32,000 nt of DNA from Acaryochloris marina MBIC11017 (GCF_000018105.1 NC_009925.1:2250001-2282000), one strand, 5' to 3'; positions 10,869 to 32,000 are shown, counted from the stretch's first letter. The notes: generated by a model from the letters alone, not told the origin. Program-made: numbers and translations.

Positions 10869-10979
10869 CTTTCTCTAGGGGAAATGGACAAAGATCGGTA
10901 AATCCTTAGGTAGTATAGTAGACCCCTTGCATGAATCCTGCCTAAAGCTACTGTCTCTTACTCTTTATGGATGGCACTA

Positions 10980-11186
10980 GCCCCCCCGCCCCCCCAATTC
11001 TGGGGGGAGAGTATTGAAAGATAACGTCACGGTTGCCAGCATTCATGGGCCAATCTCACAGACTTGAGGGTGAGTGGTACTTTTGAGCAACGGTACAGGG
11101 GGTAAGCGAATTGAGGCTAACGTTCTCACAGCAGAATCGGACAAGATAACGCTGCTCTCCCCCCAGAATTGGGGGGGCGGGGGGGC
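10980..11186. repeat. 207-bp element bounded by perfect 31-32-bp G/C-run inverted repeats (MITE-like or giant hairpin)
   Basis: Left arm 10981-11011 (C7 G C7 AATTCT G6 AGAG) is the exact reverse complement of right arm 11155-11185. The g/c pair at 10980/11186 extends the repeat to 32 bp. Confidence 0.6.
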
Positions 11187-11259
11187 CATTTATGCAAGAC
11201 CTCTAGTAAACGCTTTAACGTTTAGATGTTGTGGTGTCTATATGCACAAGGACAACGAT

Positions 11260-11493
11260 ATGAATGAGTCATCCAAGCGTTCAACTATTTACTTTGAACC
11301 GGAGTTGCATCAGGCATTACGTCTCAAAGCAGCATCGACTGATCGCACGGTATCGGATCTCGTGAATGAGGCCGTCCGTCTAGCCTTACAGGGCGATCAA
11401 GAAGATCTAGCGGTCTTTGATGAGCGAGAAACAGAGTCTACGATGACTTATAAAGAACTGCTCAATGATCTTAAAAGCCATGGCAAACTATAA
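11260..11493 (+). CDS. Ribbon-helix-helix (CopG/ParD-like) type II antitoxin
   Basis: MNESSKRSTIYFEPELHQALRLKAASTDRTVSDLVNEAVRLAL... has the RHH strand-helix-helix pattern. AAGGA lies 7 nt upstream of ATG 11260 (alternative ATG at 11242). The track's 11074 start runs through the inverted-repeat element and is rejected. The 3' end overlaps the toxin start. Confidence 0.65.
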   Translation: MNESSKRSTIYFEPELHQALRLKAASTDRTVSDLVNEAVRLALQGDQEDLAVFDERETESTMTYKELLNDLKSHGKL

Positions 11494-11740
11494 GGCCGTT
11501 TTCAAGTGATCCGTTGCCAAAGATCTGCACCGTATTTCTAATCAGGATATTGCTAGAATTCTCAGTCGGATTGAATCTCTTGCTATTGATCCACGGCTAG
11601 GTGCAGAAAAACTGTCAGAGCAAGAGAGAGCTTGCATCCGACAAAGCGTTTACCGAATCATTTACGAGATTGTAGACCAAGAATTAATCGTAGTTGTTGT
11701 TAAAGTTGGCCACAGACGCGATGTGTACAAGAATCGCTAA
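11480..11740 (+). pseudogene. RelE/ParE-family type II toxin interrupted by an in-frame TGA at codon 10
   Basis: My translation from ATG 11480: MANYKAVFK*SVAKDLHRISNQDIARILSRIESLAIDPRLGAEKLSEQERACIRQSVYRIIYEIVDQELIVVVVKVGHRRDVYKNR*. The TGA is at 11507-11509. The rest matches the RelE/ParE consensus (KDL..I, YRI.YEI, GHR.DVY). Absent from the ORF track because no start codon follows the stop. Confidence 0.65.
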
Positions 11741-11768
11741 TAGCGCTTTCAGGTAATTTCAGGAGAGA

Positions 11769-16944: not shown

Positions 16945-17624
16945 ACCCTAACCTCACTCTGATTCAACGGTCCAAGCGGGCACTTCTCTGTGCCTCCTTG
17001 GTCGTCAGCGGATGGATGCTGGCCCAACCAGCGGTGGCCCAGCGTCTGAACGCCAAACTGGCAGCGGATGCGGTCTACTCCCAATTGCCGGAGCTACCGC
17101 AAGAAAACCAGTATGTGCGCCGCAAGGGTAATAAGCCTGCTCCCAATAGCACGTTGGTCAGTCGACTAATTCGGTATCACACCCAGGTCAAGGGCCGATC
17201 GCCTCAGTATCGGTTTGACTGGAAAATCACCCTGGCGGACTATCTAGGACTCTACGAAAACCTACGAGAAGAAGAATATCCGGGGCAGTCGTACTTAAAG
17301 ACGAATCCCATGGAGAGCGATCGCAAGTTGATTCGCCAGTTCACCCGCAAGCAGCGCCTGGCATTAACTCAAGCCCTTAGCGATGTATACGCGAGTCAAG
17401 TCCCCCAGCAGGCAGCCCCTCCACCAGAGAAACAACAACCAGAGCCACCCAAGCCTGCAGCAGCCCCAGATCCAGAACCAATCTCTCGTCCCAAACTCAT
17501 TCCCTTACCTGGTTCGGGCAGCGCCGATCTCTTACGGCCTCAAACAACGCCCAAATCCAGCTCACCTCAGTCCACTACCCCCACTCGTAAGCCTACAGGT
17601 GAGTCCCAAAAGCTCACTTTTTAA
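16941..17624 (+). CDS. Hypothetical secreted protein with a Pro-rich C-terminus
   Basis: GTG start overlapping the rpoZ stop (GTGA). Signal-peptide-like [22 protein letters not shown]-terminal [21 protein letters not shown] low-complexity region. Confidence 0.6.
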
Positions 17625-17633
17625 GTACTAAGA

Positions 17634-17996
17634 ATGGACCGACAGCTCAAAGAGGGCAACGGTTGGCGCTTGGGATGGCATCCTCAGGCAGCGTTTTCCA
17701 CCCTACTCGGTACCAATGAATGGGCGGTAGAGTTAACGGCTGAGGAATTTGCTGATTTTCGTCGTCTGCTCTTACAGCTCGTCGAGTCCATCACCCAATT
17801 ACAAGATCAATTAATGGCTGAGGAAACCATTGCCTGTGAGGCGAGTAGTGATTTGGTTTGGCTAGAGGTGCAAGGCTATCCCCAGCAGTTTGCTCTCAGT
17901 TTTATCCTCTTAAATGGTCGCCGAGCAGAAGGACATTGGTCTGCAGAGAGCACCGCTGAACTGGTGGGCGCTATCCAAACAATTGAGGTCTTTTAA
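17634..17996 (+). CDS. Conserved cyanobacterial hypothetical protein (DUF1818-like, from memory)
   Basis: 120 aa. GNGWRLGW...LLGTNEWAVELTAEEFADFRRLLLQL resembles the DUF1818 family as I recall it. Confidence 0.55.
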   Translation: MDRQLKEGNGWRLGWHPQAAFSTLLGTNEWAVELTAEEFADFRRLLLQLVESITQLQDQLMAEETIACEASSDLVWLEVQGYPQQFALSFILLNGRRAEGHWSAESTAELVGAIQTIEVF

Positions 17997-18028
17997 TCAG
18001 AGTTTTATGTTAGGCTTGTAAAGCAAAA

Positions 18029-18102
18029 CGGGGCGTAGCGCAGCTTGGTAGCGCACCACTTTGGGGTAGTGGGGGTCGTGGGTTCAAATCCCGCCGCTCC
18101 GA
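18029..18102 (+). tRNA. tRNA-Pro (anticodon GGG)
   Basis: Hand-folded 74-nt cloverleaf: acceptor CGGGGCG/CGCTCCG, D-stem GCGC/GCGC, anticodon stem CCACT/AGTGG, loop TTGGGGT (anticodon GGG), T-arm GTGGG-TTCAAAT-CCCGC, discriminator A. No encoded CCA. Confidence 0.9.
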
Positions 18103-18104
18103 TT
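18056..18104 (+). repeat. attL: 49-bp direct repeat (3' half of tRNA-Pro from the anticodon stem, plus 2 nt)
   Basis: CCACTTTGGGGTAGTGGGGGTCGTGGGTTCAAATCCCGCCGCTCCGATT is identical at 30655-30703. Confidence 0.85.
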
Positions 18105-18220
18105 GACTGTAATTCTTATATCTGGCAAGGCTTGAAGGCTACTGATACTAGCTTTCAGGTCTATTTTTGTGCAATCAATATGCATTGAAATAAGTCCGTT
18201 AAAGCTGGTTAGTCGTTTAG

Positions 18221-18244
18221 TTGGCCGGATAGATTGGCCGGAAG
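18221..18244 (+). promoter_or_regulatory. Candidate integrase arm-type site (TTGGCCGGA x2), attL side
   Basis: TTGGCCGGATAGATTGGCCGGAAG lies 10 nt upstream of the integrase GTG. An identical 24-mer is at 30575-30598. Confidence 0.4.
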
Positions 18245-18253
18245 GATTAACCT

Positions 18254-19363
18254 GTGAAAAGTAGAGATAAAGTGCAGGTCACCAGTGATAGGGGGATGCT
18301 AAGACTCCGGTGGACATATATAGATAAACGTCAGAGCCTCAACCTTGGATTAGAAAATACCCGGATTAATAGGACTTATGCCAATGGCATTGCTAGGCAA
18401 ATAGCAGAAGATATTAGATGTGGTGAATACGATGTCACCAAAAATAAGTACAGGCCCAAGCTGATTGGTAATTCTGGCTTAAACTGCTCAGAGTTATTTG
18501 ATAAGTTCACAACCTACAAACAACACGATTTAGGCATCTCCCCTCGATCTGTTGAAACAAGATATATTCCGTTATCCAGGGCTTTAAACAAATGGTTAGA
18601 TATGCCTGCTCATGAGGTCACTAAAGATCATGCTAGGCACTTCATGAGTATCCAAAGTGAGCATGTCACCGCTGACACTGCTAAAGCCAGAATTGGATTA
18701 TTGGGAAGCTGTTGGAAGTGGGCCATACAAGAAGAACTATTAGCCACAGATAATCCTTGGGTTGGCTTGAGAGTAGCTCTTAAACCTCAACCAACTCAAC
18801 GAGTGAAACCCTTCAATCGAGAAGAAATCAAGGCTATCTTGTCCGAGTTTAGGAATAATCGCTATTACTCACATTATTCAGACTTTGTGATTTTCCTATT
18901 TGGTGTAGGTTGTCGGTTTGGAGAAGCAGCAGGATTACTGTGGAAGCATATTGCAGATGATTTCCAAACAGTCTGGATAGGAGAAAGCGTTTCTAGAGGC
19001 TATCGGAAAAGCACTAAGACTGGAAAGGCGAGGACGATAGTGCTATCCCCAAACGTACAATCGATGCTTAAAGCGCGATACGAAAGGCTGAAGCCTAATC
19101 TCGAAGATTTAGTTTTCCCTAGTCCACAAGGGTTACCAATATGCGATCGCAGTTTTAGAAGACGGGCGTGGAAAACAGTTCTAATTAAATGTGGCATTGA
19201 ATATCGAAAACCCTATGCAATAAGGCATTCCGCAGTTAGCCATGCACTAGCTAGTGGTGCTGATCCAATCAGTGTTGCTGAGCAAAGTGGGCACGATAAG
19301 AGAGTAATGCTGGAAAGCTATGCCCATGTCATTCAACCCCAGAGCGTTTTTATAGAGTTTTAG
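18254..19363 (+). CDS. Tyrosine-type site-specific integrase (phage integrase family)
   Basis: 369 aa, GTG start. N-terminal arm-binding-like VQVTSDRGMLRLRWTY. Catalytic signature: RFGEAAGLLW (R), AIRHSAVS (HxxR), GHDKRVMLESYAH (H...Y). Confidence 0.9.
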   Translation: MKSRDKVQVTSDRGMLRLRWTYIDKRQSLNLGLENTRINRTYANGIARQIAEDIRCGEYDVTKNKYRPKLIGNSGLNCSELFDKFTTYKQHDLGISPRSVETRYIPLSRALNKWLDMPAHEVTKDHARHFMSIQSEHVTADTAKARIGLLGSCWKWAIQEELLATDNPWVGLRVALKPQPTQRVKPFNREEIKAILSEFRNNRYYSHYSDFVIFLFGVGCRFGEAAGLLWKHIADDFQTVWIGESVSRGYRKSTKTGKARTIVLSPNVQSMLKARYERLKPNLEDLVFPSPQGLPICDRSFRRRAWKTVLIKCGIEYRKPYAIRHSAVSHALASGADPISVAEQSGHDKRVMLESYAHVIQPQSVFIEF

Positions 19364-19365
19364 TA

Positions 19366-20151
19366 ATGGAAAGTGAATTAGAAAATATTATTTGCCAGAG
19401 GATCCCCTATAAGGGTTGGATGGCGATTAACTACATGGGTGTCACATTAGAGCCTGCGATAATTAATAACATAATTGAATGTGATTTATACCTATCTTTA
19501 TGGCTTCGACATAAGGTTCTTGGTGAAAGAAAGGATCATAGTCTTGCGAGTGACACAGGGGGGGAGTATTGTTGCGATTTTTGGTATGCTCGCCTCAATC
19601 TAATTCTGGAGTTATATAAACGATCCGATGTAATCCAAAAGGGTGAATTAGCAGACCTATTTGTTTCTTGGAGTCCATACCTACTTTGGTGGACGTGCCT
19701 TTGTGAAAGTGCAATACGTGAAATTGAGAGAATTGTTTGTGAATTACCTATAAGAAAGGATTCTTTCCTCAAGTTTCACACTCAGAACTCTCCCGAAGAT
19801 CAGGAAGCGAATCCACCGCATGATGGCATAATCCCTGGGCGACTTCCCCAGTTGTCATCATACGAGTGCCCTGATATAGAAATCCAATTAGGTTTGGTAT
19901 CTCAAAATCATAACCCTAAAGAGAATGAGATGCTTTTATTCACTTTGATTGAGAAAGAAGCCAAAATTATTAGCGATAAAGATACTTCTTTCCAACCACA
20001 CTTCGATAACTATATAAGGGAAGATCGAAAGCTAATTTACCGGATGAATCGAGATCCCAAATTCTCATTCCTGAATGTTCGAGAAGGAAAGATATTGGAA
20101 AGCAAGAGAGGCAGACCCAGGCACCCAAAAGGGTTCGGAAACAGAAAATAG
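19366..20151 (+). CDS. Hypothetical island protein with a C-terminal AT-hook-like KRGRPRHPKG
   Basis: 261-aa ORF starting 2 nt after the integrase stop. No family recognised. Confidence 0.55.
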   Translation: MESELENIICQRIPYKGWMAINYMGVTLEPAIINNIIECDLYLSLWLRHKVLGERKDHSLASDTGGEYCCDFWYARLNLILELYKRSDVIQKGELADLFVSWSPYLLWWTCLCESAIREIERIVCELPIRKDSFLKFHTQNSPEDQEANPPHDGIIPGRLPQLSSYECPDIEIQLGLVSQNHNPKENEMLLFTLIEKEAKIISDKDTSFQPHFDNYIREDRKLIYRMNRDPKFSFLNVREGKILESKRGRPRHPKGFGNRK

Positions 20152-20351
20152 AATGTAACAATTTTGTGATATTAGAGCAGTTAATTCTGTATTTCGTTTG
20201 ACTACGAAAAGTCCGATTAGGTTTGTTATAGCCTTTAAGTCTTGCTATGGACCAAAAGGATTACAGCAAAAAAAATTAATCCGGTAGTACCTTCTCGTCA
20301 AAGTTGATCACTACCGGACTGATTAACAATCTAAATCATGGACGATTTATC

Positions 20352-20630
20352 ATGTTTACCCATCAGCATAAAGCTATTTTCCCATTCGTTGATACAAGAA
20401 CCTTACGTACCCACTTCCAATTGGGGAAGTTTTGTGAATCAAGGTTACGTGAGCAATTGCCCAGTCCTATTTATTGGATTCAGCCAGAACGAAAAGTTTT
20501 ATGGAACATCCGTCTGGTGCAGGACTATTTACTAAATGGTGATGGGCCTAGCCACCAGAGGTTGGTTGAAGAGTATCTATCAACCCTTGAGCCTCAAATT
20601 GACAATTTCAGCAACCAATATGCGGCTTAG
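20352..20630 (+). CDS. Small DNA-binding protein, possibly AlpA/excisionase-like
   Basis: ORF 20304..20630; I prefer ATG 20352 (MFTHQH...). LPSPIYWIQPERKVLWNIRLVQDYLL resembles the FP.P...G.R...W....V..WL tail of AlpA/MerR-type excisionases. Weak functional call. Confidence 0.4.
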   Translation: MFTHQHKAIFPFVDTRTLRTHFQLGKFCESRLREQLPSPIYWIQPERKVLWNIRLVQDYLLNGDGPSHQRLVEEYLSTLEPQIDNFSNQYAA

Positions 20631-20633
20631 GAG

Positions 20634-22202
20634 GTGAATAAAGTGAATTCTTCAACAAATAATCCACAAAATTTTTCTAGCATACTTGATGTTGCGATAG
20701 GGTATCTAGACTTAGGTTCGTCACCTCTACCAGTGGCACCAAAACAGCCTAATTCCAATTTTAATGGGAAAAATCCAAGCTATTTAGATGAACAAGGTAA
20801 GGCTTATCTAATTAGTAGCAAGCAATATCAGAATAAGCAACCAACTCGTACAGAGATAGATCTATGGTTTGCTAACCCTGAAAATGGCATTGGAATCCTT
20901 GGTAATAATCACTTGCATATAGTTGATGTCGATACCAAGCATTTCGATAGTAAGGAAGTATGTGAGCAAGTCGTTAATAAATGGCTGGATAAGCATTCTC
21001 AACTGCATGATGCTCAGGTAGAAAGAACTCTTAGTGATGGCTTCCACATATATGTAGAGTTTGCAGAGCCACCAGGGTTTACACGCTTTGCTTTTAGTGA
21101 GGGTGGATCACACGTAGGGGAGATCCAAGGGCCAAATCAGTTCACTGTCGTGGCACCCACTGTTGGTTACCAGGTAGTACAGAAAGGTAGATTCGCCCCT
21201 GTCATCGATGCTGAGTCTATTGGGCTGTACTCAATCAAGAAGGCTAAGAAAGCTAAAGCAAGCAGGTCTGATCAAGTCCAGAAAACAGTAAGAATCAAGC
21301 CAGAAAATAGTGATGCTTTATCCCTGCTGGAATTATCCACAAGGGGGGTCCAGGCAATATACCAAAGTCAACCTGAGTCTGATGATAGGAGTAAAGACAT
21401 CACCAAAGTTGCTAACGAGCTTTATGGTTGGGCAAATTGGTGTGAAGCAAATAACCTGGCTTATGATCCAGAGCCTCGAACTCTCCTTGTGGATCTTGCA
21501 TCTAACTTGGACATTGATGAGGACAGATTAGACAGAATCATTGATTCCATAGACATTGATGACTGTCAACCAGCTTGTGTATATGAAGGGGGAGATGAGG
21601 CAGCTTGGAAGAAGATCAAGAAGCTATCAGTAGATGTGGAACTAGAGGAAGTTACCACAAAAATATTGATAGACAGCACAATCATAAAGCCTCCCCAACT
21701 CTTTCATAAATCGTTATATGGCCCACTCAGTGATCTTGCATCAAATCTTGAGTTACCAGTAGAAGCTTTTCTTGTTTGTATTCTTCCTATCCTGGCTTCA
21801 AGGCTTAAGGCTGAGACAAGGCTAATAATCGATCCAGGAACTGGCTACCATGTACCGCCAATCATTTGGGCTGGTTTAGTAGGTGAATCAGGAACCATGA
21901 AAAGCCCCATTCTTAAGCTCCTCACTAGACCTTTGTCGAGGTTGCAACAAGAAGTCCACGAGAGCTATCAACTGGAAGTCTCTGAGTATGAAAAGGATTT
22001 GCAACGGTTTCAGTCTCGGTCCAAAAAACTACCTATCACCCCAGAAAAACCTAAGCATCCCAACATGAGAGATTTATTTTTCTCTGACTTTACGATTGAG
22101 GCCATTGCCGATTCCATCTGTCATCATCCATCAGAAGGCTATCTAATCCATATAGATGAGTTGGCTGGATTCTTTAAATCGATGGATGCCTATCGTAATT
22201 GA
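20634..22202 (+). CDS. Prim-Pol (bifunctional primase/polymerase) N-terminal domain plus the start of a DUF3987/YfjI-like helicase domain; ends at an in-frame TGA
   Basis: Prim-Pol motifs HIVDVDTKH (DxD) and SDGFHIYVEF. Later P-loop-like GLVGESGTMKSP. The same frame continues open after TGA 22200-22202. Confidence 0.75.
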   Translation: MNKVNSSTNNPQNFSSILDVAIGYLDLGSSPLPVAPKQPNSNFNGKNPSYLDEQGKAYLISSKQYQNKQPTRTEIDLWFANPENGIGILGNNHLHIVDVDTKHFDSKEVCEQVVNKWLDKHSQLHDAQVERTLSDGFHIYVEFAEPPGFTRFAFSEGGSHVGEIQGPNQFTVVAPTVGYQVVQKGRFAPVIDAESIGLYSIKKAKKAKASRSDQVQKTVRIKPENSDALSLLELSTRGVQAIYQSQPESDDRSKDITKVANELYGWANWCEANNLAYDPEPRTLLVDLASNLDIDEDRLDRIIDSIDIDDCQPACVYEGGDEAAWKKIKKLSVDVELEEVTTKILIDSTIIKPPQLFHKSLYGPLSDLASNLELPVEAFLVCILPILASRLKAETRLIIDPGTGYHVPPIIWAGLVGESGTMKSPILKLLTRPLSRLQQEVHESYQLEVSEYEKDLQRFQSRSKKLPITPEKPKHPNMRDLFFSDFTIEAIADSICHHPSEGYLIHIDELAGFFKSMDAYRN

Positions 22203-22310
22203 AAAGGGGCTGATAGGCAGAGGTGGTTAACTTTTTATGGTGGGGACTCTCTCAAAGTTAATCGAAAATCTTCTGAGCCGATCTATATCCCTAAAACCTC
22301 AATCAGTTTA

Positions 22311-23219
22311 TTGGGAAGTATTCAGCCTTCAGTGTTAGGGAAATTGGTATTAGATGATCCCACATCGGAAGATGGCCTCTGGCCCAGATTCCTGTGGTTT
22401 CGTCTGCCAATAACAACTCCACCAGGAATCTCAGATAGGCCGAAGCTTGATTTAATGCCCTTACTGAAAGGTGTTTACTGTGGCCTAAATGAGCTTGATG
22501 CCCAAGAGCACCGACTTTCAAGGGGAGCAATAGGGGTATGGAATCAGTGGAATCATGAGATAGGCCAGCTTATCCAACAAGAACCATCCAATATTCTCAG
22601 AGCTATATATCCAAAGTTCAAGGAGATTGCAGGCCGAATTGCCCTCATTGTTCACACCACAAATTGGGTATTAGACCAGTTAACTCTCACAGAGGGTTCA
22701 TCTACTTTTGAGGAGTCCATTATCCCTGGAATCCGGCCAATAGAGAGTGAGATCTCTGCAGAAACACTCACTGATGCTATTCAATTCACCAAATGGCTCA
22801 TGGGTCAAACTAGAAGCCTCTACTGTGAACTTGGATTATCAGACAAGGAATCATCCAGAGTTGTCAGATGCATCAATCGTTTTAGGGGATGTGGATGGAT
22901 TAAGGCTAGAACCATTACTCAATGGTGGGGGTCTACATCAAGACCTAAGGTTCAACAGGCACGAGAGTTTATGAGTCAAATTGTTGCACTGGGATATGCC
23001 ATTGATAATGGTAAGTCAGTGAATGATTCCAAATACCAAATCAAAATCACCGTACCTACAAGCCAATCCACACTTAATGCAGTAGGTGGTAAAAGTGTTG
23101 GTACGAGTTGGGAAGAAGTTGGCCACCATCCCAACAGGCTTAAAGCCATAGAGGAAAGTAGTTCCAGGGATTCTGTTGGTAATGTTGGCACATTTCTAGA
23201 ACAGAAGGTCAACAGATAG
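22311..23219 (+). CDS. C-terminal part of the DUF3987-like primase-helicase (same frame as 20634..22202)
   Basis: The frame is open from 22203 (KGADRQRWLTFYGGDSLKVNRKSSEPIYIPKTSISLLGSIQP...). It has no convincing start of its own. 22311-20634 is divisible by 3. Confidence 0.65.
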   Translation: MGSIQPSVLGKLVLDDPTSEDGLWPRFLWFRLPITTPPGISDRPKLDLMPLLKGVYCGLNELDAQEHRLSRGAIGVWNQWNHEIGQLIQQEPSNILRAIYPKFKEIAGRIALIVHTTNWVLDQLTLTEGSSTFEESIIPGIRPIESEISAETLTDAIQFTKWLMGQTRSLYCELGLSDKESSRVVRCINRFRGCGWIKARTITQWWGSTSRPKVQQAREFMSQIVALGYAIDNGKSVNDSKYQIKITVPTSQSTLNAVGGKSVGTSWEEVGHHPNRLKAIEESSSRDSVGNVGTFLEQKVNR

Positions 23220-23276
23220 TCTACATACCGTGGTCAGAATTTCCTGCTCACTACTACGGTCTTAGGGAGGTGTGTG

Positions 23277-23864
23277 ATGACGACCTCTAAACCATTTCTC
23301 AACCACATAACCACTGTGGGGGAGACTGATTACCCTACTGTAAGTTTTGAAGATGATCTCATAAGACTTAAGTATCCTGATGGCTCCACAAAATGTATAC
23401 CTAGTTTTGCATTCAAGAGCTGGTATCTAACTCTTCCCCCCTATGACTTCTCTGATTCCACTGAAAGTTTGGGTGCTATTGCATTAGGACCTGCAGGGAA
23501 AGGGGCAATTATCACCGATGTGGACGATTCTTGGGTTACTGTCAGATACCCCAATGGCACATCTAGGAAGCTATCAAGGAGAGGTTTCATAGAGTGCCAG
23601 AGAATCAAATCCACTACATTTAAGGTGGGTGATTGGGTTCTAGCTATGCTTAAGGACCTGACCTGGGTAACAGTTCAAATACTTAGCCTAGACACCCCCA
23701 CAAAGGTTATAGAAGGTGAATCCTATACCTATATTCAGGGTTGTGGGTTCAGAGCCAAAATACTAAGTAAGCCTAAGTCTATATGGAGTATTCAAATTCC
23801 CGTTCAGATTATGTGGCCTCGTAAACCACCTAATATGCAAGGGCTTGATTACTCTCTTACTTAG
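23277..23864 (+). CDS. Hypothetical island protein with internally repeated DD....YP[DN]G[ST] modules
   Basis: GGGAGG lies 6 nt upstream of ATG 23277. Repeats: FEDDLIRLKYPDGSTK and VDDSWVTVRYPNGTSR. Confidence 0.6.
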   Translation: MTTSKPFLNHITTVGETDYPTVSFEDDLIRLKYPDGSTKCIPSFAFKSWYLTLPPYDFSDSTESLGAIALGPAGKGAIITDVDDSWVTVRYPNGTSRKLSRRGFIECQRIKSTTFKVGDWVLAMLKDLTWVTVQILSLDTPTKVIEGESYTYIQGCGFRAKILSKPKSIWSIQIPVQIMWPRKPPNMQGLDYSLT

Positions 23865-23868
23865 AATG

Positions 23869-24064
23869 TGCCAACAATACCAACAAAAAACTTGAAAGTA
23901 CTGCCAGATAAAGGTTTAACCCTGTTGGCAAGCAATTCAACAACTACCCAACAGGTACCAACAAATTCTTCTTCGGATTAATTGTTGGTATTTGTTGGCA
24001 TCTATACCAACACACCAAAGTCAGTAAGAGAAATGGTCTCAGCGTTTTGTTGGCAATGTTGGTA
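23869..24064. repeat. Iteron cluster: nine perfect copies of the octamer TGTTGGYA in both orientations (putative island origin)
   Basis: Forward copies at 23923, 23983, 23993, 24048 and 24057. Reverse copies (TRCCAACA) at 23869, 23878, 23956 and 24005. An AT-rich tract follows (24070-24190). Confidence 0.6.
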
Positions 24065-24256
24065 TGTTTTCCAGGATCTAATAAAACAATCTTAATAATT
24101 AAACATACGCAAACAAGAAAATATTTGAGCTGGAATTTTCATATATACTCATTTCATTAAATCAATTTGAGTATTTATTATCCTAAACACGCTAGTCCAA
24201 AACTACGCACTTTCAGTGCGAGACTTTAGTTGCTACACATCTCCAATGCAGGATAA

Positions 24257-24604
24257 AGAAGTAGTATCAAGAAGTCTATAGTCGAGAATCATCTGGGAAA
24301 TTATGCTGTCACCCGCTTAACTATATTAAAAGGGATGGTCAGTAAAGATCATGATCATACGCTAATTGAATATCCCCCATCGAAATCGATCAGTGACATA
24401 GCCAAGCGGTTGAAAGGGTTCACATCAAGGCGACTTCAGCAAGAGTATCGAGAGTTAGAGCGGCGATATTGGGATAAATATCTGTGGGCCTTAGGTTATG
24501 GAGCCTGGAGTACAGGTAATATCAGTGAACAGATGGTGGAGGAATATTTGGAGCATCACCGTCTCGTGTCTAATAACGATATAAATACGTTCATGCTGGA
24601 GTGA
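24257..24604 (+). pseudogene. 5'-truncated IS200/IS605-family TnpA (Y1 HUH transposase) remnant
   Basis: ...YAVTRLTILKGMVSKDHDHTLIEYPPSKSISDIAKRLKGFTSRRLQQEYRELERRYWDKYLWALGYGAWSTGNISEQMVEEYLEHH matches the C-terminal ~2/3 of TnpA. The HUH motif is degenerate (HDH) and the N-terminal ~35 aa are missing. Flanking hairpins at 24206-24220 and 24657-24671. Confidence 0.65.
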
Positions 24605-24728
24605 ATCAAGACTTTAGTCCTGAGAAGAATCGGACATTAAGTCCATCAATGACCTCTGTGCTTTCAGTACAAATTCGTTAAGTTTTTCTAGATTAGTTGT
24701 TTAAATTTCTCACTACTAGAATGGTGAA

Positions 24729-25202
24729 CTATTTTGAATATTTACCAACTACTATTCCAATAAAACCTCCAGCTAACGAAATAGATAATTTTTCACATAA
24801 ATCTATGAAGTTTTTTTCATTATATGCCAAAGGCTCTTTAAAGTAATAAGCAGACCACCAGGCACCCACAAATGCAGCTATCATCAAAAGAGCACAAACT
24901 ACAAGCATTACTTGATAACTTGGACTTAAATTAATAGCTGTTGGATTTAGTATCTTATCTTGAAGAAGTTCAACTTGCTTTTCAAGTGTCTCAACCTGGC
25001 CCTTTAGATGTTCTATAAACTCTTTATCCGTTCCTTCATGCACATGAAAACTATCTACTACTTTCGTAGTAAGACTTTTATCATTATTCGCTGGATACCT
25101 AAGAAAACTTTTTGGCTTTAGGGGATTATTAAAAGATAAGATAATTATTTTAAGGAGGTCTAAAAATATAAATAATCTAGTAGTCTTTTTAGTTCTAATC
25201 AT
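24729..25202 (-). CDS. Coiled-coil protein with two C-terminal TM helices (cargo cassette gene D)
   Basis: 157 aa. Heptad-like EFIEHLKGQVETLEKQVELLQDKIL. TM segments YQVMLVVCALLMIAAFVGAWWSAYYF and LSISLAGGFIGIVVG. Very AT-rich. Confidence 0.55.
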   Translation of the reverse strand: MIRTKKTTRLFIFLDLLKIIILSFNNPLKPKSFLRYPANNDKSLTTKVVDSFHVHEGTDKEFIEHLKGQVETLEKQVELLQDKILNPTAINLSPSYQVMLVVCALLMIAAFVGAWWSAYYFKEPLAYNEKNFIDLCEKLSISLAGGFIGIVVGKYSK

Positions 25203-25666
25203 ACTTTAGTGGGAGTTGATTAACTAAGTCCAGCTCACATGCCCCTGAAAAGTCACAAAGAATTTATACAGAATTTTATATGTTTAGGTTTTTTATTCTC
25301 TTGAAATAAATTCTTTATTTATATCTGTGCTCATAAAGTTTTTATAGCAATTACCAAATTATATATATTGAAGTTTATATGTGTATATTTCAGTCGAAAA
25401 GTGAATTTTCGTAGTTAACTTTGTCTACCTTTGAGGTCAACATAAGTTTATTACAAAGAGTTTACTCAACGAAGTCAATAGAGGCTTAAAAATCACGTAA
25501 ATATGCAGAATCCCAACATTATATACACAAGATAGTATGGAGTCAAAACGTTTGAAACACAGAAAATTGTTATTTAGCCTTACATATGTAGGTACGAACC
25601 CTAATTCACATTTTGCTCATGAAGAAGAGTTCATAAGTAGCGGTTTTGAATGCTGATCAACTGATG

Positions 25667-26080
25667 TTAATGGGTAAGAAAATATTCTTCTCCATTAAAA
25701 CACGCCTCTAACTCATCTAAAATATCTCTACCTATCAATGCGATTTCTCTACTCCAAGCTAAAACAGACCTATTTGGAAGAATAATTCCATCCAACCTAA
25801 TCGATAGGGAATATGGATCATAAAAACCATGCCCTCCTACACCATAACTTATAACCGCAGGACCAATAAGAGGTGCATTCAACTCGAGTATTAGATCTTT
25901 AGGTATAAATGTTATAGGTGAACCAGTATCCAAAAGGCCATAGCAAGAAGAATCTTCGCCGAAAACAAATTCTTCTTGATAAGGTAGAGAAAGTGCAATT
26001 CTTGCAAAAGGTCCGCTCCTCACCGTATTACTATCAGAATCATGAGAATTAATATAGGGAGGAGTGATGTATTGTGGCAC
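25667..26080 (-). CDS. Retropepsin-like (clan AA) aspartic protease (cargo cassette gene C)
   Basis: 137 aa, the size of one retropepsin monomer. Active-site LLDTGSPITFIP and the flap-distal ALIGRDILDEL (compare the retroviral DTG and GRD/N motifs). Its start lies 7 nt after the stop of the upstream gene. Confidence 0.6.
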   Translation of the reverse strand: MPQYITPPYINSHDSDSNTVRSGPFARIALSLPYQEEFVFGEDSSCYGLLDTGSPITFIPKDLILELNAPLIGPAVISYGVGGHGFYDPYSLSIRLDGIILPNRSVLAWSREIALIGRDILDELEACFNGEEYFLTH

Positions 26081-26087
26081 TTATTAG

Positions 26088-26834
26088 CTATTCCTTAGGA
26101 AGCGGTGTAAAGACCCCATAATTATCACTTGTTTTAGACACTTTTTTTATGAAGATATTTTTACTTCCTCGAAATTCTCCAGCAACTTTAGTTACCGCAG
26201 CCATTGAATTACCAGCATACAATACTTCTCCATCATGAAATAAAACATATTGGCCAGCATATTTTTTGATTAATTCATCAAGTTTTTGGTTGAACAGATG
26301 ATTTTGCCTTTCAATATATTTTCGGGGTTCTTCAAAACCATCCATTTCTAGCTTTACCTTCTCAGCGGATTGGGCTAGAACACCAATCGTATTTACATCA
26401 TCTACAACATTTTCTTCTAATTGGCCCTCATGAAAAAAGGCGCTTGCAACATTTGCACCTTTTTCAATTAAAACCTCAGTGCAGAAGTGGTGACCGATAT
26501 CTGGGCAAACTGTTGCTACATGAGGGGATAGATAAGGATGTTGATCACCTGTATTTAGCAATTCACGAGAATGTTGTATTGATTTGTTTGCTAAGTCGTT
26601 TCCATCATTCAAATATCTCCCTTCATCTATATCATGATGGGGGGCATGATCTTTGCAAACTTGCTGTTCTCGCGCAGCCAAATGCGCTTCTTTCACCTGA
26701 ATTATATTTAAGACCCCAATACCACAGCTAACGGGTGAAATTGTTCTAAAGTGGCAAGACAATTCTTTAGTCCATCGACTTTCCAAGTCAGCCAATTTTC
26801 TAGAGGTATAAACGACTCTCTTAGGGTAAACCAT
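26088..26834 (-). CDS. Cys/His-rich protein with a DUF5678-like C-terminal module (cargo cassette gene B)
   Basis: 248 aa. N-terminal region has SCHF, VSCG, VCKDHAPHHD and VCPDIGHHFC. The C-terminal LDELIKKYAGQYVLFHDGEVLYAGNSMAAVTKVAGEFRGSKNIFIKKV matches my memory of DUF5678. Confidence 0.55.
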   Translation of the reverse strand: MVYPKRVVYTSRKLADLESRWTKELSCHFRTISPVSCGIGVLNIIQVKEAHLAAREQQVCKDHAPHHDIDEGRYLNDGNDLANKSIQHSRELLNTGDQHPYLSPHVATVCPDIGHHFCTEVLIEKGANVASAFFHEGQLEENVVDDVNTIGVLAQSAEKVKLEMDGFEEPRKYIERQNHLFNQKLDELIKKYAGQYVLFHDGEVLYAGNSMAAVTKVAGEFRGSKNIFIKKVSKTSDNYGVFTPLPKE

Positions 26835-26897
26835 GGCTAAAAATATCTTGCTAAAGGACGAAACATCAAAAGCTATCTAGTTGAGGGAGAAACTACT

Positions 26898-27806
26898 TTA
26901 ATCGGATAATATTTTCTTTGCATTGTAATAAACAGTAGAAAACTGAGTAAACATCAATTGATTTATTAAATAAATTGACAAAATATCAGTAAGAATTTGT
27001 ATAAAAAATCTATCTTCGAGCTTAAAATATTCTACATTGATATGGTCAAAACATAGAAATCCAAATAAAGCTCGCTGAGTGGAGCTAATAATTTGAAACT
27101 TTTCAATAAATTCTTTCCTTAACTTTTTCGTTGCCAAAGAAACTGGAAGTATAAGCGTGGATTTATAACACGTTTCTGGGGGAGATTCAATACTTTCTTT
27201 AGAGCCCACCCTTGAAACTGGAGACCAGCAGCTGACCCATTCTTGATCATACCTATCTCTGAACTTTCTACTGTGATCAACACTATGAGTTGTAGCATAT
27301 ATATATGCTGCCTTATCTTTTATCCTTATGTTCACATATTTTCCATTTGCAATTTCGTTAGGTATATTATTGCACAAATAAAAATCTTTACCCTGAGCAA
27401 TCTCAAGAAAACCTGTATTAGCTGAAATTTCAGTGTTGTTGTCTGACAAAAATGACTCTGGTATCTTTAAAAGAGTTGCTAGTTTGTCCTTAGAAATAAC
27501 TTTAAGAGTTAACCGTGGTGATATGTTTGACCTACCCTGAAAATATACCAATGAATACTTATAAGCCTTCTCAAAAATTCTCCCAAAATCATCTAAGAAA
27601 AAGCCGTCAAAATCAGCTAATAATTCTCTCAGGTGATCTTCTTCATCTTTACTTATCTCTTGCTTATCTGAAGTTATAGATTGGATACATTGTCTTAGAT
27701 TTTTATGATTTTCATTAACCATAAAAATATGCTGCAATAAACTTGTTTGACTACTGCAAACATAATCACTTAAAAGCTCTAATAATTTTGATTCAATCTC
27801 ACTCAT
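26898..27806 (-). CDS. Hypothetical protein, possibly GAF-like sensor fold (cargo cassette gene A)
   Basis: 302 aa. C-terminal STLILPVSL...RALFGFLCFDHINVEYFKLEDRFFIQILTDILSIYL resembles the end of a GAF domain. No catalytic motif seen. Low-confidence fold guess. Confidence 0.5.
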   Translation of the reverse strand: MSEIESKLLELLSDYVCSSQTSLLQHIFMVNENHKNLRQCIQSITSDKQEISKDEEDHLRELLADFDGFFLDDFGRIFEKAYKYSLVYFQGRSNISPRLTLKVISKDKLATLLKIPESFLSDNNTEISANTGFLEIAQGKDFYLCNNIPNEIANGKYVNIRIKDKAAYIYATTHSVDHSRKFRDRYDQEWVSCWSPVSRVGSKESIESPPETCYKSTLILPVSLATKKLRKEFIEKFQIISSTQRALFGFLCFDHINVEYFKLEDRFFIQILTDILSIYLINQLMFTQFSTVYYNAKKILSD

Positions 27807-29070
27807 TATTTTATGATTTTTAAGGTCTAACTGAGATTCATAAGTATCTGCTTAATTAAGTGAATATTTTCAAGAATTTAGTAGGATATAATGAAAAAAT
27901 AATTAACCCAACAATATCACTAATAGAATTTAGCAGATTGTATATTTCTTTACAAACAATCGTTTTTTTTGCAGTTTAACTATAGCTCATTCTTGTATTA
28001 AGCTGCTTCAGCAATACCCCTGAGAAAAAATTAGAATTCGCTTATTGTTTTCATTAGAATTACCGATGCATTTTTCTCAAGGAAGCAATAAGAAGAGTTG
28101 GATCCACAAAGAAAGAAAACTTTCTGTATAATATTATACTATTTTAAAGCGATTATGGCTTTTGCCCCAGATTGTTTCATTGAAGCAAGCGATCATGAAA
28201 GGATAATCTATTGTGCTCCAAAGACGAGAATTCGTGTTTTGCAGCCCTGTAAGAGTTTTTTCTTTCAGAAAGGGTTGTATACGGTAACACACTTAGATAT
28301 TCTCCTGCTTGTTGGCTATTCATGTTGATTTTTGGGGCTCTCTATTCTAGAGTGTAATTTTTTTTAGGTAGTTTATTTATACTTAATGACTATTATCTTT
28401 CTGTGGTTTTGCCAAATAATACGCCGATTTTACATTTCTTATTGCCAATCTCTGCTTTTTTATCATTCTCTCCCGCTTATATTAAGGATTTATAGTTGAT
28501 GGCTTTTCGAAAACCTTCTAAAGTCTTTTCTAATTCGCGAGATCAAAGTTGAGATTTTATAAAGTAAAACCAATTGTTTGATTTAAGATAAAGTCAGTTT
28601 ATAGAGATGACCTCCACAATCTCTAAGTCAATGAATAGCTAGGGTTGCCCCTGAACCTTGGATATTCTAATAAATAGGAAGTAGCACAGAGCTTGAATAA
28701 ACTTGCCAATGACGTAGTAAGCAAAACAATGATGTAACTACTTGAAGTTGAAAAAGTAAACAAAAATTGTTAGGTTGCAAGTACCTTGAATTAATGGATG
28801 AGTCAGTCACCAGAGTAATGATTAAAATCAACAGGTAAATTTGTAATACTGGAAACTGGCCGGAAAGTTGAACAAAGCTGTTTCATGGGAGTATTCCCAA
28901 AACGGGACAATAATCTGAAACGCTCCCCAGGAATTTTACCTAGTGAATTTGGCACTGGTCTCTTAACAAGGCGCACGTCTAAAACCTTTATTGGTTATGA
29001 GTTCTAACATGCTAAGCGGGCGTGAAGAAAATCCCATCTCCATCGCTGGCGTAGTCTGCTTGCTGAGCCC

Positions 29071-29637
29071 TCAATGGGGTCTAACCCAGTTATGAATCAG
29101 CCGTTGTACGTCTAGCACTCTCTGAAAACCCGACTGCTTCTTAGCGTAGAGATTCTGCCTTTTTCGATAAGCACTACATCGTCTCCTCAAGGCAGCATTG
29201 TGAGCCTCGTTGTGATTGGCATGGACCTCAGATGCTGGACTGATAGCGGTAAAGGGATGCTCTGCTTTCACCCACTTCACCCACTTCACTCGCCGATTCG
29301 CCTGAAATCCTTTAACTTTCATCGCGACTTCTAATCCGTCTCGCCAAACCTTGCGATGCCCATAATCAGGGTGACACTCCTCAGCGTTGAGAGAGACACT
29401 GGCGAGCTTCCAAAGTTCTTGTCCATAGCGTCTTTCTCCATCAGTAAACCATTGAATCCCATCACAGGTTTTCATCCACTCCCAAGCTGATTGAACGCCA
29501 TCAATAAAGAGTTGTTGATCCTTGAGACCAGCCTGTGCTGTAAACCAATAACGGCTCGCGCGCTCAAGGAAGTGGATGGTCCAGCCCTGGGACTGGCTAG
29601 AGGGGAAGATTTTCGCATACACGAGTGTAAACTTCAT
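29071..29637 (-). CDS. IS1 InsB-like DDE transposase catalytic part (+1 frame relative to InsA)
   Basis: WFTDGERRY (second D) and HANHNEAHNAALRRRCSAYRKRQNLYAKK (E region) parallel IS1 InsB MTDGWPLY / IERHNLNLRQHLARL. 41-nt overlap with the InsA frame. Confidence 0.75.
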   Translation of the reverse strand: MKFTLVYAKIFPSSQSQGWTIHFLERASRYWFTAQAGLKDQQLFIDGVQSAWEWMKTCDGIQWFTDGERRYGQELWKLASVSLNAEECHPDYGHRKVWRDGLEVAMKVKGFQANRRVKWVKWVKAEHPFTAISPASEVHANHNEAHNAALRRRCSAYRKRQNLYAKKQSGFQRVLDVQRLIHNWVRPH

Positions 29638-29968
29638 CCCCTTCTACCGTCACATCAGAACTTGCTGGAGCTGGGGGTGACCAGTTCAGTGCCTGATCTG
29701 CTAGGTGCTTTTCCCACCGCATAATGGTGGTATGAGATGTCCCAAAAGTACGACCCGTTGCACGGACTCCCATTCCTTTGGTGCGAGCCTTGATGGCATA
29801 GCTCACCACTAAACTGGTGGTGCGTAAGCGAGCCATTGGGTTACCTGTGCGTTCTTTGAAACGCCGATTGCAATCCTCACACTGATATCGCTGGACTAGT
29901 GTCCCATCTTGCAGGCTATCAAAGCCTCGTTTATGGATCTTCTGGCTCTGGCAGCATGGGCATTCCAT
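29597..29968 (-). CDS. IS1 InsA-like (zinc finger plus HTH) ORF
   Basis: CPCC...CEDC zinc ribbon. GMGVRATGRTFGTSHTTIMRW HTH resembles IS1 InsA. It ends with GDEVYTRV (first DDE aspartate region). Confidence 0.75.
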   Translation of the reverse strand: MECPCCQSQKIHKRGFDSLQDGTLVQRYQCEDCNRRFKERTGNPMARLRTTSLVVSYAIKARTKGMGVRATGRTFGTSHTTIMRWEKHLADQALNWSPPAPASSDVTVEGDEVYTRVCENLPL

Positions 29969-30300
29969 TGATCTACATTACGTTGTGTCGGAGCCATTCT
30001 AGCTAGATCCAGTTGATAGACCAGTGCCAATTAGACCGCTTTGATAGCATTAACTCTGGATAATAGTAGTTTTTTTCCTTTTACTGGCGTATTTTGTACT
30101 GTGGAAACTTTGTTCAGTTTAGAAGTACTTGAGTTTACTACCCTTATTTTTCCATGTTAACTGGGTAAAGATACGTAGCTATGATATAAGTCCGACAACC
30201 TTACCTGAAGTTATATAAGCAATACTTATACTTCCCTGTTATCTGGGATTAATCTTGTCGAAACTGGGTACTCTAAGGTTAACGTTTTTGACTTTTCGTT

Positions 30301-30546
30301 ATGCCTAAGAAGAAAGGCACCCCTGGTGGTAATCCCAATCCAGTCCAGACACCACAATTCATAGCCAAGCAATTTAAAGCTGATGACGTGCCTGAAGGTG
30401 TCAAACTTCAAAAAGGCTTGACGGCAGTTAGACTACCTGAAGACATAGCTGATCTAGTTAATGGTTTGGGTAAAGAGAAACCAGCTTGGCTACGTCGAGT
30501 GATTACCACAGCAGTGAAGCAAGAGTTGATGGGAGGTGAGGAATAA
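30301..30546 (+). CDS. Small basic protein, possibly ribbon-helix-helix DNA-binding
   Basis: 81 aa. TAVRLPEDIADLVNGLGKEKPAWLRRVITTAVKQEL fits a strand-helix-helix pattern. It ends 28 nt before the arm-type repeat near attR. Confidence 0.45.
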   Translation: MPKKKGTPGGNPNPVQTPQFIAKQFKADDVPEGVKLQKGLTAVRLPEDIADLVNGLGKEKPAWLRRVITTAVKQELMGGEE

Positions 30547-30574
30547 GAACGAATTTACGTTGTTTCAGATGCCA

Positions 30575-30598
30575 TTGGCCGGATAGATTGGCCGGAAG
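30575..30598 (+). promoter_or_regulatory. Candidate integrase arm-type site (TTGGCCGGA x2), attR side
   Basis: Identical 24-mer to 18221-18244 in the same orientation, 56 nt before the attR core. Confidence 0.4.
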
Positions 30599-30654
30599 CA
30601 TTTGGAAGAAGCCTTGTAAGTCTTGCTAGACAAAGATTTTGTAGATCATGTGAC

Positions 30655-30703
30655 CCACTTTGGGGTAGTGGGGGTCGTGGGTTCAAATCCCGCCGCTCCG
30701 ATT
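30655..30703 (+). repeat. attR: displaced 3' half of tRNA-Pro (49-bp direct repeat)
   Basis: Identical to 18056-18104. The preceding sequence does not complete a tRNA. Confidence 0.85.
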
Positions 30704-30710
30704 AACTTAG

Positions 30711-30740
30711 AACCTCCTCTAGTAGGAGGTTTAATTATTT
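30711..30740 (+). terminator. Rho-independent terminator (original tRNA-Pro terminator)
   Basis: 8-bp stem AACCTCCT/AGGAGGTT (30711-30718 / 30724-30731) with loop CTAGT, followed by the T-rich TAATTATTTT. Confidence 0.6.
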
Positions 30741-30897
30741 TAAACGGCCTTAATTAACACCTTTTCAACAAGAAAGAAATGCATCATTCTCAGATGGAAA
30801 AGTTAAAGGGTCAACCTACTATTCTGGTTATAAGATCAGGGGCTAACCCTCTATTGGCAATCATTAATTCTGACTGGAAATAGAGGGTCAAGATCGG

Positions 30898-32000
30898 TTA
30901 GATCTCTGTGCCATCAGGAATGATGGCATTCTTCAAAATGACAACAATCCCACTCCGAATATAGAAGCCTTCATCCTCATGATTCGCCTCCTCCACCTGG
31001 GCTTTATTGACGATTTTGACGTTCTTGCCAATTCGGGCATTTTTATCAACAATTGCTTTGCGTATAACAGTATTTTCTCCAATCCCTAAGGGCACTCTAC
31101 CTTGATCCAGATCAGCTTGCCGCTCAGACAGGGATTGATAATAATCAGACCCTAGCCACAACACATTGTCCAGGGTGCAATGATCGTCTACATAAGAGCG
31201 AACCCCTAGAACGGAATGGTGAATTTGGCTCTTTTTGACAATACAGCCTTCACCAACAATGGATTCCGTCACCCGGCAATCGAGGATTTTACTAGGGGGT
31301 AAATATCGGGCTCGAGTATAAATGGGAGCCTGCTCATCGTAAAAACTAAATTTGGGTTTTGGCTGTTGTGCTAACGCTAGATTGGCTTCATAGAACGCTT
31401 CAATCGTTCCAATATCTTCCCAATAATCATCAAACAGAAATGCCTGGATATTGTGATTCGCAGCAGCCGTGGGAATCACCTCTTTGCCAAAGTCAGTGTG
31501 CGCAATATTAGATTCCAGTAAGTCGATCAGAACCTCTTTTTTGAATACGTATATCCCCATAGAGGCAATATAAGGTTGCTCACGGGCCTGTTCTGCACTC
31601 AACCCGAGCAACGTGGTATCCACCTGCATTTGGGTTAATTCATCTCCCGAGGGTTTTTCACAAAAATCTCCCACACGCCCTGACTCATCCAGCTTCATCA
31701 AGCCAAAGGCAGAGGCCCGTCGCTCATCCATGGGAACCACAGAGATGGTGATATCAGCATTGGTATCACGATGTCGTTGGACAAATCGGCTGTAGTCCAT
31801 GCGATACAGATGGTCTCCAGAAAGGATGAGATATTCATCCACATCCCATTCCTTGAGCAACTGCAAATACTGGCGAACCGCATCGGCCGTTCCTTCAAAC
31901 CAACCTGAGTTGTCGGGAGTCTGCTGGGCAGCCAAGACCTCAACAAATCCTTCTGTAAAATTCGAGAAATTATAGCCCCGACTCAAATGTCGATTGAGAG
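30898..32000 (-). CDS. glgC: Glucose-1-phosphate adenylyltransferase (ADP-glucose pyrophosphorylase), 5'-truncated by the window end
   Basis: ...[44 protein letters not shown]...[18 protein letters not shown]... is unmistakably cyanobacterial GlgC. The frame stays open upstream of the track's TTG 'start' to position 32000. Confidence 0.92.

Follow-up and report, generated by a model that had tools for sequence, protein, structure and literature searches.

The window analysed here is a stretch of 32,000 nucleotides (nt) of Acaryochloris marina MBIC11017, with all coordinates counted from its first base. Within its gene for tRNA-Pro(GGG) lies a genomic island of 12.6 kb (18105-30654), which carries the genes AM1_2270 to AM1_2280, as established by exact-sequence look-ups of the island proteins. 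The island is very probably a real, ordinary, well-delimited and partly decayed integrative element. It is bounded by two exact copies of the 3′ part of the tRNA gene, its integrase belongs to a family that is found beside tRNA genes across the cyanobacteria, the uninterrupted site exists in a related lineage, and its replication gene is broken by a nonsense codon.

The attachment site and its empty counterpart

The left attachment site (attL) and the right one (attR) consist of the following features.

18029-18102, + strand: tRNA-Pro(GGG), intact, with the 3′ two-thirds supplied by the element (attL; ARAGORN, Rfam)
18056-18104, + strand: attL core, left member of the exact 49-bp repeat pair (repeat search)
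18128-18162, + strand: element-borne terminator-like hairpin, then ATTTTTG, behind the rebuilt tRNA (hairpin with T-tract)
30655-30703, + strand: attR core, the original 3′ part of the tRNA, now displaced (repeat search, empty-site alignment)
30710-30732, + strand: native tRNA terminator hairpin (terminator-like), after the right repeat copy (hairpin search)

The tRNA-Pro(GGG) gene is the sole tRNA of the window (ARAGORN) and scores 59.7 bits against the Rfam tRNA model. An earlier, sequence-only reading of this DNA had reported an identical 49-mer at 18056-18104 and 30655-30703. The match is indeed exact over 49 bp and has no third copy in the window, even with up to three mismatches permitted; the number of 49-mer pairs expected by chance in 32 kb is about 1e-21. 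A repeat finder returned the slightly longer pair 18056-18108/30655-30707, of 53 nt with one mismatch, at 18105/30704. The extent given for the repeat was also correct: its first base is tRNA position 28, in the anticodon stem, and its last lies 2 nt beyond the final base of the tRNA. The same reading had placed an integrase directly downstream of the reconstituted tRNA and a native terminator hairpin beyond the right tRNA half; the integrase gene starts 152 bp after the tRNA, and the hairpin is found at 30710-30732. The GC content of the island is 0.393, which is 10 points below that of the left flank (0.489); the right flank stands at 0.446 and the cargo part of the island at 0.338.

On its arrival, the element would have carried a 49-bp attP core identical to the 3′ part of the tRNA-Pro(GGG) gene on the chromosome, and its tyrosine integrase would have joined the two by recombination. 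The outcome at attL would have been a complete tRNA once more, followed by a terminator that the element supplied, and attR would have kept the original 3′ part and the native terminator. The hairpin and T-tract at 18128-18162 stand behind the rebuilt tRNA, and the element therefore appears to bring its own terminator in replacement of the native one. The stem of this hairpin is kept in a related element, L010.

Related contigs were obtained from Logan assemblies via a look-up of the DUF1818 protein encoded just left of the tRNA. In three of them (L002, L003 and L006) the DUF1818 gene and tRNA-Pro are followed directly by glgC with nothing between, and in the alignment the left side of attL is joined to the right side of attR and on into window position 30704 onward. 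This is the empty site that had been predicted for strains lacking the island, with tRNA-Pro continuing at 30704. A hairpin matching 30710-30732 stands directly behind the tRNA in the empty-site contigs. The three represent a related A. marina lineage, with a left flank 94.9-96.6% identical and a right flank 99.9% identical to the window. This asymmetry (95% left, 99.9% right) was examined and reflects a block of about 2 kb around the site that is simply conserved.

The limits of this block can be given. Around the attachment site (17287-18104 and 30704-32000) the window is near-identical to L002 and L003, with 1-2 differences, while a divergence of about 5% begins abruptly left of 17286 and one of about 2.4% is seen further right. 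The near-identical block round the tRNA may be a recombination tract. There is a second small indel in the same neighbourhood, at about 10835-11757, where a ribbon-helix-helix (RHH) antitoxin/ParE toxin pair is present in MBIC11017 and in strain MBIC10699, and where L002 has about 50 bp.

Integrase, replication gene and insertion sequences

The genes and motifs that underlie the assignment, together with the lesions, are as follows (ORF, open reading frame; IS, insertion sequence; aa, amino acids).

18221-18242, + strand: two tandem TTGGCCGGA motifs with 13-bp spacing, just upstream of int (P′ arm candidate; motif count)
18254-19363, + strand: tyrosine integrase (int) of 369 aa with an N-terminal Arm-DNA-binding domain, inward-facing, no internal stop (Pfam, PHROG)
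20352-20630, + strand: 92-aa protein AM1_2271, found between int and the primase family-wide (locus survey)
20634-23219, + strand: PrimPol (AEP)-DUF3987 helicase fusion replicase, broken by an in-frame TGA (Pfam, translation)
24172-24604, + strand: IS200/IS605 remnant, with a truncated Y1 transposase ORF at 24335-24604 (Pfam Y1_Tnp)
28949-30030, - strand: IS1-family IS, with ORFA at 29597-29968 and ORFB at 29071-29637 (NCBIfam, inverted-repeat search)
30575-30596, + strand: tandem TTGGCCGGA pair, 59 bp short of the right core (P arm candidate; motif count)

The integrase ORF starts with GTG at 18254, where the deposited annotation uses the ATG at 18296. The protein contains the Pfam domains Phage_integrase (E=6e-20) and Arm-DNA-bind_2 and matches the PHROG integrase profile at E=2e-50. 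Residues R221, R324, H325, H347 and Y356 are invariant in 12 relatives. The TTGGCCGGA motif occurs in five copies in the window against 0.23 expected, and both tandem pairs are kept in L010 although the neighbouring DNA has diverged. In an excised circle the two pairs would stand either side of the core, and they are likely candidates for the arm-type sites bound by the Arm-DNA-bind_2 domain of the integrase.

Homologs of the integrase number 748 at E<1e-20, essentially all of them cyanobacterial. A survey was made of 80 homologous integrase loci from GTDB cyanobacterial species genomes, with 10 kb fetched per locus. In 59 of these loci the integrase is preceded, at a distance of 139-284 bp, by a tRNA in the same orientation, these tRNAs being Pro-CGG, Pro-GGG, Val, Ala, Thr and Gly; in most of the remaining 21 the integrase stands at the edge of its contig. 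Eight loci contain a second copy of the attachment site inside the fetched 10 kb. Their repeats of 43-59 nt start at tRNA position 25-32, and the elements so bounded measure 3.8-10.7 kb and have the same geometry as the island in the window.

Of the 80 loci, 23 encode the 92-aa protein together with the integrase, and so does L010. Its 90 homolog clusters are all annotated as hypothetical and are without a Pfam domain, and no sequence match was obtained in Pfam or the PDB, even with a 22-sequence profile. An AlphaFold2 (AF2) model built from an 80-sequence alignment has a predicted local distance difference test (pLDDT) score of 75.9. The model is suggestive of a candidate excisionase or winged-helix DNA binder.

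The related element L010, from another sample, is 8,896 bp long, with both contig ends within the same core. It has the backbone order of the island, namely int, a variable gene, the 92-aa gene, the primase-helicase gene and a 195-aa gene, and its right end carries a homolog of the 81-aa gene of the island. The backbone is about 86% identical at the nucleotide level and the cargo is unrelated; the L010 primase is intact, at 894 aa. The proposed order for the island itself is attL, int, variable gene, 92-aa putative excisionase, PrimPol-DUF3987, 196-aa protein, cargo, 81-aa putative RHH protein and attR. Another relative, the 10.3-kb element L022, is located at tRNA-Val(CAC) of Acaryochloris sp. 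IP29b_bin.148. It carries different cargo and has, between the primase gene and that for the 92-aa protein, one further gene of 252 aa (L022 11190-11948); both differences indicate modular exchange within the family.

The replication gene had been read as carrying a nonsense codon, and this holds. There is a single stop in the frame, TGA at 22200-22202 (codon 523), with both halves of the gene in one frame. The intact 894-aa relative P0001, from L010, is 82% identical and reads AYRNGKGADRQ where the window reads AYRN*KGADRQ, so that the TGA of the window stands for GGA (Gly). AEP motif I (IVDVD, residue 96) and motif II (GFH, residue 136) are present, followed by Walker A (GESGTMKS, residue 417) and Walker B (IHIDE, residue 505). 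The TGA falls just after Walker B and removes the DUF3987 profile beyond approximately position 163 of 364. The gene therefore has the motifs of an AEP PrimPol-DUF3987 replicase in an interrupted frame. DUF3987 has been shown to be a 5′-3′ helicase that partners an AEP primase-polymerase on integrase-bearing integrated elements (PMC11724360), and AEP-helicase fusions are known replicases of tRNA-integrated elements (PMC5862659). From its sequence, the excised circle of the island would probably have no working helicase and could not replicate.

Two further signs of decay had been named, an IS1 in the right arm and an IS200 remnant; both are there, the first itself damaged by a premature stop. 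In common with the IS1 family, the element at 28949-30030 has an N-terminal zinc-finger/helix-turn-helix ORFA, an ORFB in a shifted frame, a size of about 1.1 kb and terminal inverted repeats, here of 19 bp with 17/19 matching. Its left end was confirmed by a second, degenerate copy on a plasmid of A. marina S15. ORFB is 62% identical at the protein level to Pseudanabaena proteins that are named IS1 family transposase by PGAP and have the same ORFA/ORFB layout. It departs from the family in several respects. ORFA scores 62 bits against NCBIfam transpos_IS1 (E=7e-17), under the curated cutoff of 100, and the Pfam model DDE_Tnp_IS1 gives no match, even at E<=5. The frame of ORFB is +1 relative to that of ORFA. 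A TGA, at a position where relatives have TGG or GGN, cuts ORFB short by about 34 codons, and no target-site duplication is visible at the insert, as the flanking 9-mers differ.

A contig from a different strain, L258 (SRR29694079), contains the island right arm (window 29553-30684) at 99.1% identity and is joined within the IS1 ORFB to unrelated DNA encoding a caspase-GUN4 protein. This junction suggests an IS1-associated rearrangement or a variant element.

The Y1 ORF of the IS200/IS605 remnant matches only positions 48-120 of the 121 of the profile (the C-terminal 60%), and a complete Y1 (HUH) transposase is not present in the fragment. Ahead of this ORF lies a 150-bp non-coding sequence (24172-24322) with a hairpin at 24206-24220, which recurs at 82-95% identity on several Acaryochloris plasmids. 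It could represent one end of an IS200/IS605 or some small repeat element.

Age, state and mobility of the island

The island in the window is degenerate: its replicase is cut inside the helicase domain, and an IS200 and an IS1-family insertion, both damaged, occupy the cargo and right arm. A. marina MBIC10699 (record AP026075) carries the same island at the same position. The two strains have an average nucleotide identity of 98.0 (PMC9324425). Three single-nucleotide polymorphisms (SNPs) and one poly-T indel are all that separate the MBIC10699 copy from the window in 20 kb, and that copy has the same replicase TGA and the same IS200 remnant; the TGA is also found in Logan assemblies. Because MBIC11017 and MBIC10699 share both the island and the TGA, the insertion and the lesions common to the two strains predate the divergence of their two copies.

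In MBIC10699, the neighbouring glgC gene is broken, at window 31086-31093, by an insert of about 892 bp that encodes a DDE_Tnp_1 (DUF4096) transposase and is flanked by an 8-bp duplication. The gene is annotated at 370 aa in that strain against 429 aa in the empty-site contigs, and the insert is absent from the window.

The perfect repeats had been taken by the sequence-only reading as a sign of recent integration or retained mobility. This part of it did not stand up well, as the repeat is only 49 bp long and its left copy is held constant within a working tRNA. Recency is further undercut by the two separately isolated strains that share the island and its nonsense codon.

An intact element of this kind would be expected to excise as a circle, to replicate itself via the primase-helicase and to re-integrate at the same tRNA in a new cell. 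For the island, excision is plausible on sequence grounds, because the integrase, the cores and the arm repeats are intact. It is unlikely that the island is still fully mobile, with the TGA tolerated through cooperation of the helicase halves, read-through of the stop or replication of the circle by the host. The intact integrase, 49-bp cores and arm repeats speak for such mobility, as does one contig of sample DRR194263 (L004) that passes straight through the site as if it were empty, between flanks that match MBIC11017 exactly, with island fragments in the same sample. As proof of ongoing excision this contig was rejected, since the core is longer than the word length of the assembler, the coverage is patchy and the join can be an assembly artefact. 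Full mobility is also opposed by the position of the TGA inside the DUF3987 helicase domain, by the two strains that have kept the island at the same place with identical lesions, and by the two IS insertions, which point to relaxed selection.

The behaviour of the assemblies follows from the length of the core. In island-bearing samples the contigs break 30 nt into the core (L005, L007, L008, L012, L260-L264) because the 49-bp repeat was left unresolved by the assembler, for which we infer a word size (k) of about 31. With a core exceeding this word size, the integrated and the excised states yield the same assembly graph.

Several points weigh against a partly decayed element that arrived by site-specific integration. 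The three empty-site contigs have one common SNP pattern and thus represent one lineage, rather than three independent ones. The island and its flanks are almost identical in MBIC11017 and MBIC10699, and the island could have entered one of these strains by homologous recombination of the whole region instead of by site-specific integration. Integrated and excised forms are indistinguishable in the Logan contigs, as the 49-bp core is longer than the contig overlaps, and neither a circular form nor an attP junction was seen among the assembled short-read contigs, which cannot resolve that core. Lastly, the best Foldseek matches of the putative excisionase, to the RdfS (E=0.34) and Tn916 (E=1.1) excisionases, are non-significant.

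Cargo genes and comparison with known elements

The remaining genes of the island are listed below.

19366-20151, + strand: 261-aa protein AM1_2270, in a backbone slot (ORF, look-up)
23274-23864, + strand: 196-aa backbone protein, 80% identical to its L010 counterpart (ORF comparison)
24729-25202, - strand: 157-aa cargo protein with a hydrophobic C-terminal stretch (ORF, look-up)
25667-26834, - strand: cargo pair of a 248-aa protein with C-terminal DUF5678 (26088-26834) and a 137-aa retropepsin-like protein (25667-26080) (Pfam)
26898-27806, - strand: 302-aa cargo protein AM1_2277, with a domain without annotation (homology search)
30301-30546, + strand: 81-aa protein AM1_2280, with homologs kept at the right ends of related elements (homolog positions)

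The slot of AM1_2270 is variable, and L010 holds an unrelated 233-aa gene there. Contigs L014-L016 and L004, from samples DRR194262-4, span only the 3′ end of int and the 261-aa gene (window 18713-20357), ending at about 20324-20357, and one of them runs on into a gene for sulfite/nitrite reductase. Their appearance is that of chimeric assemblies or of assemblies derived from transcripts. Sample DRR194263 may be RNA-seq; if the DRR194262-4 samples are of that type, int and the 261-aa gene would be expressed in culture. At the other end of the island, homologs of the 81-aa protein adjoin attR in L010, L022 and L065, and the sequence pattern suggests an RHH regulator.

In the cargo, the 137-aa protein has a DTGS motif and bears the NCBI name ‘pepsin/retropepsin-like aspartic protease’. 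Together with the DUF5678 protein it may form a small two-gene module, such as an addiction module. One paper mentioning DUF5678 was found in the literature, on an unrelated subject.

A search for relatives of the 302-aa protein gave 458 at the 50%-cluster level. The longer ones carry the same domain C-terminal to GT4-conflict, calcineurin-like phosphoesterase, caspase, PNP_UDP_1 or TIR domains, and several of these N-terminal parts match PADLOC effector models. A pattern of fusion to effector domains is typical of the sensor or regulatory modules of anti-phage systems. Over the 302-aa domain itself there is no Pfam, PDB or PADLOC match, and a family profile run against the PDB and Pfam returned nothing beyond one weak GAF_2 match in one of 53 members. 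A single-sequence AF2 model has a pLDDT of 42.9 and is unusable. Across 74 metagenome loci no gene recurs as a conserved neighbour of the family, and neither the DUF5678/retropepsin-like pair nor the 157-aa protein is linked to it. No known defence system was detected in the cargo by PADLOC. The domain may be a sensor module of defence systems, which is put forward here as a lead and not as a finding.

The presence of such cargo bears on whether the island could be a phage satellite, either a phage-inducible chromosomal island (PICI) or a PICI-like tycheposon, that a helper cyanophage mobilises and packages, rather than a plasmid-like element. The small size of the island agrees with this, as do the int/putative xis/primase-helicase module, which is typical of satellites, the cargo domain, which is elsewhere fused to defence effectors of the kind common on satellites, and the failure of Pfam and PHROGs to reveal any transfer genes of its own. 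P4 and the PICIs are likewise small tRNA-integrated elements with an integrase, a small excision or regulatory protein, a primase-helicase replicase and accessory or defence cargo. They differ from the island in their packaging or capsid-size-redirection genes, of which none was detected here. No capsid, terminase, tail or other structural phage gene was found among the island ORFs with Pfam and PHROGs, and the same searches gave no helper-packaging hijack gene (terS, capsid, sid/psu-like) in any of them; nor was a terminase small subunit, capsid or capsid-remodelling gene seen by eye in L010 or L022. Relatives are rare in viral contigs, the integrase family being nearly absent from those of IMG/VR, where the best match is 41% identical, and no helper phage is known. 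The AEP/DUF3987-type replicase is, to our knowledge, not the P4 alpha type. On balance, a satellite is an improbable identity for the island.

An integrative and conjugative or integrative and mobilizable element was considered and set aside, as relaxase, type IV secretion system and coupling-protein domains were not found in the island ORFs. A reading of the segment as core DNA of ancestral origin, with a repeat that arose when the tRNA 3′ end was duplicated locally, can safely be dismissed: MBIC11017 and MBIC10699 do both carry it at the same position, but this account is refuted by the empty-site contigs and is further opposed by a GC content 10 points under the left flank, by the integrase, primase and IS content, by a related element with different cargo on the same core and by the family-wide link of integrase and tRNA.

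As a partly decayed integrative element, the island is most readily compared with the tycheposons of Prochlorococcus, which combine a site-specific integrase that targets tRNA genes and points inward from one end with cargo and a small module for replication (bioRxiv 10.1101/2020.12.28.424599). Both have a cyanobacterial host, a tRNA-targeting tyrosine integrase with a partial tRNA at the far end, and a variable cargo module. The architecture also agrees, as int reads into the element and is followed by the primase-helicase at 20634-23219. The hallmark functional classes (integrase, putative xis and pri/hel) are present, a likeness at the level of functional class. On the other hand, Acaryochloris is a benthic or epiphytic host with a large genome and not a streamlined picocyanobacterium, the cargo of the island shows no nutrient-acquisition genes, and the island copy is degenerate.

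For the replicase, comparable systems are the integrated elements that encode AEP primase-helicase fusions (PrimPol-PV1 supergroup, including the Anabaena all3500-like family; PMC5862659) and the integrase-linked AgaPP/AgaPH elements (PMC11724360). PrimPol motifs I and II and the DUF3987 Walker A and B motifs are shared with these, and so is the location of the gene on an integrase-bearing element with attachment repeats in a tRNA gene. In the island the primase and helicase form one polypeptide, as against the two separate proteins AgaPP and AgaPH. The island is also without the prokaryotic Argonaute (pAgo) of those elements, and its replicase is interrupted by a nonsense codon.

The island belongs to a widespread, little-described, cyanobacteria-wide family and is an ordinary kind of genomic island; the current understanding of genomic island function is unchanged by these findings. 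More tentatively, and with somewhat less than even confidence, the family may be a not formally described, cyanobacteria-wide group of small (4-13 kb) tRNA-targeting, integrative and self-replicating elements, the counterpart of the tycheposons outside the picocyanobacteria. Were this so, two features would add novelty, namely the 92-aa protein as a new unannotated excisionase-like family and a cargo with an unannotated domain of about 300 aa, suggesting a new anti-phage sensor module.

Acaryochloris genomes are known for their large and plastic gene content. For the annotation of this locus, AM1_2270-2280 constitute a degenerate integrative element at tRNA-Pro(GGG), and the functional tRNA of the strain was restored with DNA of the element. 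The 302-aa protein offers a lead on an unannotated domain tied to defence effectors. The 49-bp core and the TTGGCCGGA candidate arm sites make up a candidate site-specific integration tool for cyanobacterial engineering. The integrase, the 92-aa protein and a tRNA 3′ repeat starting from position 25-32 together provide a handle for finding cyanobacterial islands, and the integrase family marks many cyanobacterial tRNA genes as insertion hotspots.

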